Origin: a virus
Strand: one strand, 5' to 3'
DNA length: 64,000 nt
Virus record (IMG/VR): IMGVR_UViG_3300049043_000133
Span: 1 to 64,000 of that record
Below are positions 21,630 through 27,866 of the stretch, one piece after another. Position numbers and translations under genes: made by a program. Under the pieces are notes generated by a model. The model was given only the letters and a program-made list of their open reading frames with translations, searched no databases and had not been told where the DNA came from. Each line of letters begins with the position of its first letter. The first letter of the stretch is position 1.

Positions 21630-21740
21630 CGACTGCCCTAGGGCGCAGTACAATACTCTCATAGGCAACAGGGGTCCAAACTCTGTGTAAGTCCTGCCCC
21701 TCCCATGCCTCTCATAGAAGCACAAACAGGGAGGTCTCTT

Positions 21741-23161: not shown

Positions 23162-23248
23162 GGAGAGACAATCCGATTGGTGACGGAACCGCTCTTGAAA
23201 AGCGTTGAGGTGTTAAAGCCCTTAGGCGTTCGACTCGCCTTCTCTCCG
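23162..23248 (+). tRNA. tRNA-Ser(UGA)
   Basis: cttgaaa loop, long variable arm, gttcgactc. Confidence 0.9.
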
Positions 23249-25069: not shown

Positions 25070-25144
25070 GCTCGTTTACCCATCTGGTTGAAGGCAACCG
25101 ATCTCATAAATCGGCAGAGGTGAGTTCGATCCACGCAACGGGCA
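25070..25144 (+). tRNA. tRNA-Met(CAU) or Ile2
   Basis: ccgat-ctcataa-atcgg anticodon arm; gttcgatcc. Confidence 0.8.
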
Positions 25145-25196
25145 CTTGACAGAATCCCTGTCATCCCCTATAATACATAGGTCAACATTCAAAACA

Positions 25197-25412
25197 ATGA
25201 CTCTCACAGCAAAATTCAAGAAAGACGTTCAAACCCTTCGTGGTGCAGCAAATGGTGATTTCTACCTTGATGTAAAGAATCCGAAACTTTTTAAAAAGGT
25301 TCGTCGTTTTTATGAGCAAGAAGGTGTAGTATTCTCTGGTGATCCTTTGGATGACTATGAGATTCTTATGGAATACGTTCTTGCCGATCTTGAAACTGTT
25401 GAGGTTGCTTAG
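25197..25412 (+). CDS. Conserved cyanophage hypothetical protein
   Basis: LDVKNPKLFKKVRR...GVVFSGDPLDDY; TTGACA...TATAAT promoter upstream. Confidence 0.65.
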   Translation: MTLTAKFKKDVQTLRGAANGDFYLDVKNPKLFKKVRRFYEQEGVVFSGDPLDDYEILMEYVLADLETVEVA

Positions 25413-25415
25413 TTA

Positions 25416-25820
25416 AATAGTCACGGAGAGACTTAAAAAGTACTGGTCGGGAGCAAACCCCTAATGTCTAAAGCAAGTATCTTAAGATATCTTGGCAACC
25501 TTCTCCTCATTATTGGTTATCAAACTATGCTATGGGGAGATTTTAAATATGGTTTATTGGTTAAATGTGTTGGGGGATTACTCACAGTACCTTTTGCTAT
25601 TAAACTTAAACTCTGGGATGTATTATTCCTATGTGCTTTCTTTGGTATTTCCGAGATATCAAAGGTTGTACAACTTTTCCTAGTTCAGTCAAACTAGGTG
25701 GTGGATCCAATGACCCCCTTATGTCCTCGTCGGATTGGACATTAAATATGCCGACTGGTGTGGATGGGGAAACTCCCGCCTGGTTTCCAATTTCCAGTCA
25801 AAGAATTGGTGGCGTGCATG
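25416..25820 (+). ncRNA. manA/wcaG-like modular structured RNA, interrupted by an ORF
   Basis: Repeated tttc-stem-gtggyg modules and tggtgtggatgggg..cccgcc; upstream of a nucleotide-sugar epimerase, as for the cyanophage manA/wcaG motifs. Confidence 0.6.
25464..25697 (+). CDS. Small three-TM membrane protein
   Basis: 77 aa hydrophobic ORF. Confidence 0.65.
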   Translation: MSKASILRYLGNLLLIIGYQTMLWGDFKYGLLVKCVGGLLTVPFAIKLKLWDVLFLCAFFGISEISKVVQLFLVQSN

Positions 25821-25894
25821 AAAGACCTGATGAGAGGAGTTGCATAAACTCCTCTTTTTTGTATAATACATACTATAGACATATTCATTAATCT

Positions 25895-26962
25895 ATGAGT
25901 GATTATAAGAAAACAGCACTTGTACTTGGTGCTGGTGGCTTTATTGGAAGTCATATGGTAAAACGTCTACGTTCCGAAGGTTATTGGGTGCGTGGAGTTG
26001 ACCTTAAGTATCCAGAATATTCTGTTAGTGAAGCAAACGAATTTATTCTCGGTGATTTGCGTGATGTAAATTTTGTTCGTCGTTGCATTCGTTTTACTGG
26101 ATATCTTGGTAATTTTTATCAGCAGATTGTTGATAAGTTTGCACAACCATTTGATGAGATCTATCAGTTTGCTGCTGATATGGGTGGTGCAGGATTTGTT
26201 TTCACTGGTGAGAATGATGCAGACATTATGCACAACTCTGTGACAATTAACTTAAATGTCTTGGATGAACAGCGTAAACTAAATGAAGATAAAGGTGTAA
26301 ATAATACCAAAATCTTTTATTCTGGTTCTGCTTGCATGTATCCAGAGCATAACCAATTAGATCCTGACAATCCTGATTGCCGTGAAGAATCTGCATACCC
26401 AGCAAACCCAGACTCCGAATATGGATGGGAAAAACTCTTCTCTGAACGTCTATACTTTGCTTACAACCGTAATTATGGCATCCCTGTTAGGGTTGCTCGG
26501 TATCACAATATTTTTGGACCTGAGGGAACGTGGAAAGGTGGACGCGAAAAAGCCCCTGCAGCAATGTGTCGTAAAGTAGCAGAACTTGGTGTTCTTGGTG
26601 GTGAGATTGAAGTTTGGGGAGATGGCAATCAAACTCGTTCATTCCTTTATATTGATGAGTGTATTGAAGCAACTCGTCGTCTGATGGATTCTGATTTTAT
26701 TGGTCCAGTTAATATTGGTTCCGAAGAAATGGTAACAATCAATCGACTCGTAGATACTGTTGCTAAAGTTTCTGGAAAGTCTGTAGAGAAAAAACATATC
26801 AACGGACCTTTGGGAGTTCGAGGTCGTAATTCTAATAATGATTTGATTCGTGAAAAATTAGGATGGGACTATTCTCAAAGTCTTGAAGAAGGAATTTGTA
26901 AAACTTACGAGTGGATTAATTCTCAAGTTTATAAAGATACTATAATGTATCATCCAGTTTGA
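25895..26962 (+). CDS. GDP-mannose 3,5-epimerase-like SDR
   Basis: GAGGFIG, FAADMGGAGF, SACMYP, YGWEK, GGREKAPAA. Confidence 0.9.
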   Translation: MSDYKKTALVLGAGGFIGSHMVKRLRSEGYWVRGVDLKYPEYSVSEANEFILGDLRDVNFVRRCIRFTGYLGNFYQQIVDKFAQPFDEIYQFAADMGGAGFVFTGENDADIMHNSVTINLNVLDEQRKLNEDKGVNNTKIFYSGSACMYPEHNQLDPDNPDCREESAYPANPDSEYGWEKLFSERLYFAYNRNYGIPVRVARYHNIFGPEGTWKGGREKAPAAMCRKVAELGVLGGEIEVWGDGNQTRSFLYIDECIEATRRLMDSDFIGPVNIGSEEMVTINRLVDTVAKVSGKSVEKKHINGPLGVRGRNSNNDLIREKLGWDYSQSLEEGICKTYEWINSQVYKDTIMYHPV

Positions 26963-26963
26963 T

Positions 26964-27866
26964 ATGGTAGTATATAAATTTTTGAATGACTGTTCTGAAA
27001 TAAACAAAGATAAGTTCAAGACAGAAAATTGGTATTTAATGAATTGGGGAATGGGGGATGCAATTGATGCAACTCTTTTTCTTGAATCAAATTCACCAGT
27101 TTCTTATAAAATTCTATGCAGACCTGGAATTTTTAATGGAATTAAATTTGTTTTAGATAACTTTATATCTAATCCAAAATGTAAAGTTGTTGAAGTTTTT
27201 CCTTTGGAAACAGGATATCCTATTCCTGAGGAAGAAGTTGTTATGTCCAAACATGGGTTTTATCCCCAAGATTTGAATATTTTAAATAATGCTCATAATA
27301 TTGGACAACTCAAAGTATGTCATATGGCACCAAAAATGTGGTCTGTTCTTCAAAATCTTCAAGGTGCAGGAATCCTTTCAAATATAGAAACATATTCAAA
27401 TATAAAAAAAGATATTGAAGAAAAAACTTGCATTCTTTTTCCTGAAAGAGGAGATAGTTATCAACTAGATGATTCTTTTTGGAATAATATTGTTGATAAA
27501 ATGAAAGCGAAAGGATATAAAGTAATTGTAAATTGGACTAGTAAAACAAATGTGTTTACTAACCAAAAGATCTTTCAAGGCACTGAAAGGTTGGATAAAT
27601 TAGAACTTCAAGATCTTTTAGATTATTTGGTTCGCCATAAAAATTTGGTGACCATTGGTCAAATATCTGGTATTTTTGTTTTACTTAAATATTTTGAATT
27701 TTTGAAAATTGCTTTTTTTGTTGATTATAATGATCCTAAAATGAAAGATCCAACAAGAGCATTATATGAATCTTGTAGTCTTGCAGATGGTCTTTATACA
27801 AAAAATATGATAGAATTTAAATTATCAGAATTTAATATTAATCAACTTGATCTAGTAGTTCCATGA
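26964..27866 (+). CDS. Putative GT-B-like glycosyltransferase
   Basis: GMGD N-terminal motif as in GT9-like proteins; island context. Confidence 0.45.
   Translation: MVVYKFLNDCSEINKDKFKTENWYLMNWGMGDAIDATLFLESNSPVSYKILCRPGIFNGIKFVLDNFISNPKCKVVEVFPLETGYPIPEEEVVMSKHGFYPQDLNILNNAHNIGQLKVCHMAPKMWSVLQNLQGAGILSNIETYSNIKKDIEEKTCILFPERGDSYQLDDSFWNNIVDKMKAKGYKVIVNWTSKTNVFTNQKIFQGTERLDKLELQDLLDYLVRHKNLVTIGQISGIFVLLKYFEFLKIAFFVDYNDPKMKDPTRALYESCSLADGLYTKNMIEFKLSEFNINQLDLVVP

Follow-up and report, generated by a model that had tools for sequence, protein, structure and literature searches.

A phrog_2318 membrane-protein gene at a junction of wcaG-class RNA modules in a T4-like cyanophage, with a putative coupling of translation and RNA folding

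Immediately ahead of the glycan island of a cyanophage genome, a small open reading frame is bordered on both sides by repeated, hairpin-forming sequence, which raises the question of whether this frame is a gene, what the bordering elements are, and whether the translation of the one could affect the folding of the other or the expression of the 18-kb island. The window, that is, the whole stretch of DNA that was analysed, comprises 64,000 nucleotides and belongs to an IMG/VR record of 92,658 bases, which is 45% complete according to CheckV. A preliminary description had listed a 5′ segment, an ORF with a transmembrane character whose stop codon lies in a stem, a series of repeated modules, and a hairpin before the epimerase gene; all of these elements proved to be placed as described. 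It had further proposed that the ORF was captured in the loop of one manA/wcaG-like RNA that might control the island. The reading which is favoured here, and which is held with moderate confidence, is that a tandem array of wcaG-class modules would make up the 3′ portion of a short transcription unit of early type and would be split by a phrog_2318 gene, with a coupling between translation and folding. Promoters, terminator, and coupling are in this case predictions from sequence.

The window is a fragment of a T4-like cyanomyovirus and contains a tRNA cluster, PhotoRC-II, a group I intron, and a glutamine riboswitch. Its closest isolates are the Synechococcus phages Bellamy, SynMITS9220M01, S-SM2, S-SRM01, and S-SKS1. 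The tRNA cluster is headed by an abiF RNA at Rfam gathering level (44.8 bits, 21699-21735), and a borderline match to tRNA-Sec (47.4 bits versus a threshold of 47, 23162-23247) is likely to represent a tRNA whose variable arm is long. The features of the locus under study are collected in Table 1. The ORF is preceded, at a distance of 51 nt, by a phrog_552 gene, which corresponds to T4-like gene cluster 249 in S-SM2 and is the first gene of its transcription unit; its synteny is kept in Bellamy, S-SM2, S-SRM01, S-SKS1, Sf-CH5, S-CAM7, and ACG-2014f. The usual successor of the phrog_552 gene is a member of T4-like cluster 250 ("gp206"). Homology of the ORF to this gene or to Bellamy gp199 was considered and rejected, the alignments being without real similarity. 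On the other side of the wcaG RNA lies the glycan island, which includes a GT10-like gene from position 27863.

Table 1. Features of the locus, in positions of the 64,000-nucleotide window
Feature	Position	Strand	Evidence
Promoter-like site, sigma-70-type TTGACA-17-TATAAT	25146..25174	+	12/12 consensus matches
phrog_552 gene, 71 aa, conserved in cyanophages	25197..25412	+	phrog_552, E 2.4e-26
Module A: 4-bp hairpin AGUC/GACU, 7-nt loop ACGGAGA	25419..25433	+	covariation
Module c: CUGGUCGG + small hairpin GGG-AGCAAA-CCC	25443..25461	+	sequence match, ~100 loci
77-aa three-helix membrane-protein gene, phrog_2318	25464..25697	+	PHROG profile match, E 4.2e-19
Module K: UUUC + 7-bp stem (25679-25685 with 25692-25698)	25676..25698	+	covariation; weak Rfam match
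UGGUGG motif + degenerate small G/C hairpin GGAUCC-AAUGA-CCCCC	25699..25719	+	aligned with 50 relatives
Canonical wcaG RNA (RF01761), complete	25721..25823	+	77.2 bits, model 1-98/98
Intrinsic-terminator-like hairpin (25832-25856) + T run	25832..25860	+	9 nt after wcaG
Promoter-like site, -35 TTGCAT 25840-25845, -10 TATAAT 25862-25867	25840..25867	+	sequence pattern
NAD-dependent epimerase/dehydratase gene, opens glycan island	25895..26962	+	PF01370, E 6.9e-37

The 77-codon ORF is a genuine gene. Beginning with the ATG at 25464 and ending with the TAG at 25695-25697, it encodes a protein of 77 amino acids, of which residues 1-70 align with positions 1-70 of the 71 positions of the phrog_2318 profile (E 4.2e-19), and tblastn finds homologues in 195 phage records at 28-52% protein identity. 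Among 28 distinct homologues adjoining wcaG, the median dN/dS is 0.18; in the same set, 74 of 75 columns are variable at the third codon position and 34 at the second. The AlphaFold model of the protein (pLDDT 83.6) is made up of three helices, spanning residues 3-23, 27-47, and 51-75. Distant paralogues are located near replication genes in other cyanophages and lack wcaG-like flanks, from which it follows that the family exists independently of the RNA. Many of the homologues are left unannotated, among them those in the GenBank records of S-SRM01 (L004:2064-2276) and ACG-2014f (L008:2001-2228).

Further assignment of the protein was attempted by several routes. A sequence search of the PDB gave no match at E<=10, Foldseek with the model returned generic helical bundles only (best E 1.1), and Pfam had no match for the protein. 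DUF6552, the neighbour of the ORF in a protein atlas, is not confirmed by Pfam at E<=10, and a SemiSWEET or PQ-loop sugar transporter was discarded for want of sequence or fold support. Within the coding region a 9-bp hairpin is present (25640-25665, CUUUGGUAU...AUAUCAAAG), which is kept in the closest subfamily with at least one compensatory change and is absent from the FYAAIE subfamily. A weak Rfam match makes use of this hairpin; the possibility that it is the genuine P1 of a wcaG copy which extends into the end of the gene was rejected, the hairpin being confined to the nearest subfamily.

Entirely downstream of the gene lies a contiguous and complete wcaG RNA, which reaches 77.2 bits where 42 is the gathering score (E 1.2e-12 in the Rfam search of the whole window) and for which the 5′ segment is not needed. 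It is composed of P1, a GUCGG/CCGAC variant, P2, and P3 with the pseudoknot CCUGG/CCAGU, and its UGGYG motifs are represented in the window by CUGGUGU after P1 and GUGGCG after P3. The modules "gtcgg/ccgac-tggtgtgg" and "tttc-caatt/aattg-gtggcg", to which the preliminary description had drawn attention, are thus real and are identical with P1 and P3 of this full-length match. Score, two UGGYG motifs, pseudoknot, and a nucleotide-sugar gene downstream in cyanophage DNA all agree with RF01761. The 3′ pseudoknot, formed between CYRG before UUUC and the P3 loop, is paired at 94-96% and covaries in 88 distinct sequences. This pseudoknot is already annotated in the original wcaG alignment (Weinberg et al. 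2010, PMC2864571), whose authors also noted the duplication of UGGYG and considered that a dimeric protein might bind there. In alignment A6 the 5′ half of wcaG shows a second pseudoknot-like pairing (columns 7-9 with 22-24; e.g., L001:2347-2364), in which RRG immediately preceding UUUC is joined to CYY of the P1 loop. The positions are paired at 74%, and GC, AU, and GU replace one another; the 2010 alignment annotates the 3′ pseudoknot only (PMC2864571). Spurious ORFs are annotated across the wcaG RNA in the S-SM2 and S-SRM01 records.

From the initial designation as manA/wcaG-like, the wcaG part was borne out and the manA part was not: the manA covariance model (RF01745) gave no match at E<=10 in 25100-26000 and none in the whole 92.7-kb record. 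The search as such works, since the same model detects manA in related contigs. In related contigs with wcaG-type arrays, manA RNAs adjoin tRNA clusters (L239:992-1187, L234:3782-3991, L215:1-167).

The sequences that flank the gene directly are related to the parts of wcaG. On the 5′ side, module A is in its general form a 4-bp hairpin with the loop NYGGNNN; its stem is 99% paired and shows compensatory changes at 4/4 pairs (alignment A7, 105 distinct sequences). Module c, which is the counterpart of the P2 element UGGUGCGGAUGGG..CCCGCC of wcaG, is present in about 100 loci; in the 64-kb window the pattern CTGGTSG..ACCC has a single match, namely module c. It contains an SD-like GGAG, and its last nucleotide lies 2 nt before the AUG. 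On the 3′ side, the stop codon of the gene is part of the 3′ arm of a CUAGUU/AACUAG stem (25680-25685 with 25692-25697), which is preceded by UUUUC and followed by GUGGUGG. The module K to which this stem belongs is shaped like P1 and P3 of wcaG (UUUC-stem-loop-stem, then UGGYG) and is 99.7% paired with covariation (alignment A4, 51 sequences). The element at 25699..25719 is a variant of the common UGGUGGAGUC-n-GACCC, module x, another P2 counterpart, whose consensus occurs in more than 120 viral contigs; wcaG is found in nearly all of the first 100 of these (92 matches).

The 5′ segment alone has no wcaG match at E<=10 in Rfam, and a weak match at 25634-25712 (22.4 bits, E 0.1) is below threshold, its score being carried by the stop-codon hairpin as P3. 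The original seed alignment places A+c and K+x variants as P1/P2 (PMC2864571). Among the loci the order of the modules varies, with c-x, c-K-x, and A-x all occurring. Comparative sequence data support the view that the flanks of the phrog_2318 gene are wcaG-class modules on both sides, with A and K hairpins whose pairing and covariation go beyond chance. Strand-specific covariation together with the pseudoknot points to selection on RNA, beyond what DNA repeats only would entail. The trinucleotide GGA is common to the loops of the A hairpins (ACGGAGA, ACGGAUG, UCGGAAU; in the window 25423-25429) and to the UGGUGGAGUC and GCGGAUGG elements. In this respect the modules may resemble the GGA hairpins of CsrA/RsmA type that occur in arrays on sponge RNAs.

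Loci of wcaG were sampled via the 3′ half of the RNA and pooled with loci fetched earlier, which gave, among the matches listed, 108 non-redundant loci with enough upstream sequence; the phrog_2318 gene is present in 29 of these listed loci (27%). The element CUGGUCGG starts at most 24 nt before the ATG in 25 of the 29 gene-bearing loci, most often at 21 nt, and the stop codon falls inside the K hairpin in 24, with an A-type hairpin overlapping the gene end in the other five. The layout in which the AUG follows the c hairpin by 2-4 nt and the stop codon is located within the K hairpin is, accordingly, one that recurs among relatives. Equivalent junctions are occupied by two families unrelated to the phrog_2318 ORF, namely a Bellamy gp199-like coiled-coil ORF (the "MATKGTAAKSASG..." protein; 15/108 loci, e.g., L001:2146-2346) and the "MSKTPYELRFEIFKQAY..." protein ("MSKTPYELRF..."; 7/108 loci, among them L022, where it is on the minus strand about 250 nt upstream of wcaG). 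Between the modules of 59 loci none of the three ORF families covered by this classification is found.

Isolates and gene-free relatives complete the picture. The order gene-K-x-wcaG is found in S-SRM01 and S-CAM7, and in ACG-2014f the gene is followed by a K-type hairpin only and has no 5′ module. A comparison with relatives lacking the ORF, as envisaged at the outset, was informative: A-c-K is contiguous in 30 distinct ORF-less sequences, and the full Rfam model of wcaG matches three such arrays with 43.5 bits, which is above the gathering score, 39.1 bits, and 33.5 bits, most of the bits being contributed by P3, also in the best match. An identical c sequence, CUGGUCGGGAGCAAACCCCUUA, leads to the gene AUG in many contigs and, in two loci without the ORF (L045 and L049), to a further module and then to wcaG. 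Pairs of contigs whose flanks are about 86-88% identical differ by the presence of a cassette.

Concerning transcription, the upstream site with full sigma-70-type consensus is the likely start of a short unit that would reach the terminator. With its 4 bp and the lack of a U run, the hairpin in the 5′ segment is a leader rather than a terminator. Downstream of wcaG, 94/106 loci have a terminator-like hairpin at a median distance of 11 nt. In the window, the -35 element of the second promoter-like site is situated within the terminator loop; the spacer has 16 nt, and the epimerase ATG is 27 nt further downstream. The corresponding pattern, TTGnnn-(15-18)-TAnnWT, occurs after wcaG in 73/106 loci versus 15 in shuffles; the spacer has 17 nt in 64 of the sites, and the -35 element reads TTGCAT in 42 and TTGACA in 14. 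Since the loop sequence is conserved at promoter spacing, an own promoter of the epimerase gene is indicated, in which case wcaG could act on the glycan island solely via terminator read-through. The proposed control of the 18-kb island by this region is therefore doubtful, since wcaG is followed by a terminator and the epimerase gene is immediately preceded by a promoter of the sigma-70 type. Inspection by eye in three phages revealed no consistent antiterminator pairing of the terminator with P2 of wcaG.

Had the 5′ segment and the 3′ modules been halves of one folded RNA with the ORF in its loop, translation would switch an RNA that controls the island. The MFE fold of 25410-25865 does enclose the ORF, in that the c element pairs with the P2 region of wcaG further downstream, and the best c duplex is on the same site in many loci with about -20 kcal/mol; however, it drops to -9 to -17 kcal/mol where c varies, and over 25 loci the duplexes are no better than those of shuffled c elements (median z -0.4). 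Pairing of this kind is what paralogous G-rich and C-rich arms give anyway. A long-range helix closing around the ORF, neither conserved nor better than shuffles in energy, was consequently rejected. In addition, the Rfam model of wcaG is a row of hairpins with no closing helix, the canonical wcaG is fully present even when the 5′ segment is disregarded, and the island would have its own promoter after the terminator, so that a single enclosing fold is highly improbable. The gene is accordingly placed at a junction between sequential hairpins instead of in a loop. What stands of the proposed insertion into a wcaG-like RNA is that the gene splits an array of variant modules; the canonical copy is whole and stands apart from the gene. 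It is barely conceivable that the ORF is a chance open frame and 25416-25860 a single long structured RNA. The missing annotation in several GenBank relatives and the missing Pfam match would suit such a frame, but not the phrog_2318 match (E 4e-19), the 195 records with homologues, the low dN/dS with variation at nearly all third positions, the confident three-helix model, and the paralogues in unrelated genome contexts.

Another explanation takes the modules as pure punctuation, i.e., as independent intercistronic elements that border small-gene cassettes of a hyperplastic region, in the manner of the promoter-early stem-loops of T4-type coliphages, with no coupling between translation and wcaG; the module would then act locally at the RNA level, in stability, processing, or factor binding, or be simply repeated DNA, and the gene would have been placed by repeat recombination. 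This is possible, if rather unlikely. It would account for the combinatorial module order, for three unrelated ORF families at the junctions, for related contigs that differ by entire cassettes, and for the terminator-promoter composite after wcaG, and it has a precedent in the PeSL-mediated shuffling documented for T4-type phages (PMC2839356, PMC4122927). It does not account as well for the precise placement of the codons, with the 21-nt mode at the start and the stop in a stem in 24/29 loci, or for the fact that a hairpin builds the final codons of the ORF, which is more than neighbourhood, and the strand-specific covariation including the pseudoknot argues for RNA selection. Because the modules combine freely, "one RNA split by a gene" may amount to no more than "a gene between independent modules". 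A tentative and unlikely extension would have wcaG not as an independent riboswitch of 98 nt but as the end piece of a variable array of UGGYG modules which is read jointly by one factor, with cassette translation and module occupancy setting the read-through at the terminator, out of the early transcript and into the glycan island. That factor might be the ribosome or, in line with a suspicion of the 2010 authors, a multimeric protein that binds RNA, and the small-gene cassettes would be wired in because their start and stop codons sit in module hairpins.

In the preferred reading of a tandem wcaG-class array split by the phrog_2318 gene, the unit would run from the promoter at 25146-25174 through the phrog_552 gene to the terminator at 25832-25860. 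An array module would consist of a hairpin, a UGG(U/C)G-type motif, and mostly a small G/C hairpin. The last two modules form the intact canonical wcaG at 25721-25823, and the preceding ones (A + c, K + UGGUGG element) would represent a variant wcaG architecture, which the gene would split between the second and the third hairpin. An initiating ribosome covers roughly 15 nt on each side of the AUG, and a terminating one extends about 12-15 nt beyond the stop, thereby including the stop codon and the UGGUGG site. From these footprints, translation of the ORF and folding of the c hairpin, or of the K hairpin with UGGUGG, would be mutually exclusive. The 5′ module would most likely gate the translation of the small gene, and translation would transiently unfold the module that immediately precedes the canonical wcaG; the P1 of the latter, about 30 nt past the stop, would be outside the ribosome cover. 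The repeats would also provide the microhomology for gain and loss of small-gene cassettes at module junctions. Genes of marine picocyanobacteria and cyanophages often do without SD-dependent initiation; the role of the GGAG in module c is for this reason uncertain.

Summarizing, wcaG, an orphan riboswitch candidate since 2010 for which no ligand has been found, belongs in about a quarter of the sampled loci to an extended array of modules into which a translated gene is wired. Here it would be located at the 3′ end of a transcript, ahead of a composite of terminator and promoter, and not in a simple 5′ UTR. Array and 3′-end position change which constructs and hypotheses merit tests, such as a protein-binding array or a translation coupling. 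The analysis also draws attention to a conserved gene for a membrane protein which several GenBank phage records do not annotate. The wcaG RNA itself is known; no description of a gene between wcaG modules, of the codon-hairpin overlaps, or of their recurrence was found in the literature searched, and these aspects are apparently new.

Tandem riboswitches present repeated sensing modules before a terminator, and in translation-coupled attenuators ribosomes on a short ORF remodel the RNA. With tandem riboswitch and leader arrangements the present locus shares the repeated modules on one transcript before a terminator, and with translation-coupled attenuators it would share the principle that ribosome occupancy of a short ORF can remodel nearby RNA structure. 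It differs from both in that the ORF encodes a conserved 77-aa membrane protein and not a leader peptide; an alternative terminator/antiterminator pairing, as in attenuators, was not found here.

The promoter-early stem-loops (PeSLs) of T4-type phages (PMC2839356, PMC4122927) are likewise short, repeated cassettes with a regulatory role; they border small genes that are not essential, lie in hyperplastic regions, and have indels at the repeat sequences. The composite of terminator and promoter after wcaG is of like make-up, as far as its sequence pattern tells. In contrast, the wcaG-class modules are covarying RNA hairpins with UGGYG and a pseudoknot, and not promoter-terminator pairs. PeSLs were described in non-cyanobacterial T4-like phages, and the word "cyanophage" is absent from PMC4122927; in a paper on the cyanophage S-PM2 (PMC4503421) the term PeSL is used three times.

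The closest parallel is the wcaG motif (RF01761; PMC2864571), with which the locus has in common the three hairpins, the two UGGYG motifs, the 3′ pseudoknot, the terminator that follows, and the nucleotide-sugar gene downstream. The flanking modules share its building blocks as well, and comparable variants stand in the original alignment as P1/P2/P3. The differences are that these building blocks are iterated here, so that four UGG(U/C)G-type sites result, and that a translated gene sits between hairpins 2 and 3 of the upstream variant copy, its start abutting one hairpin and its stop codon lying inside the next.
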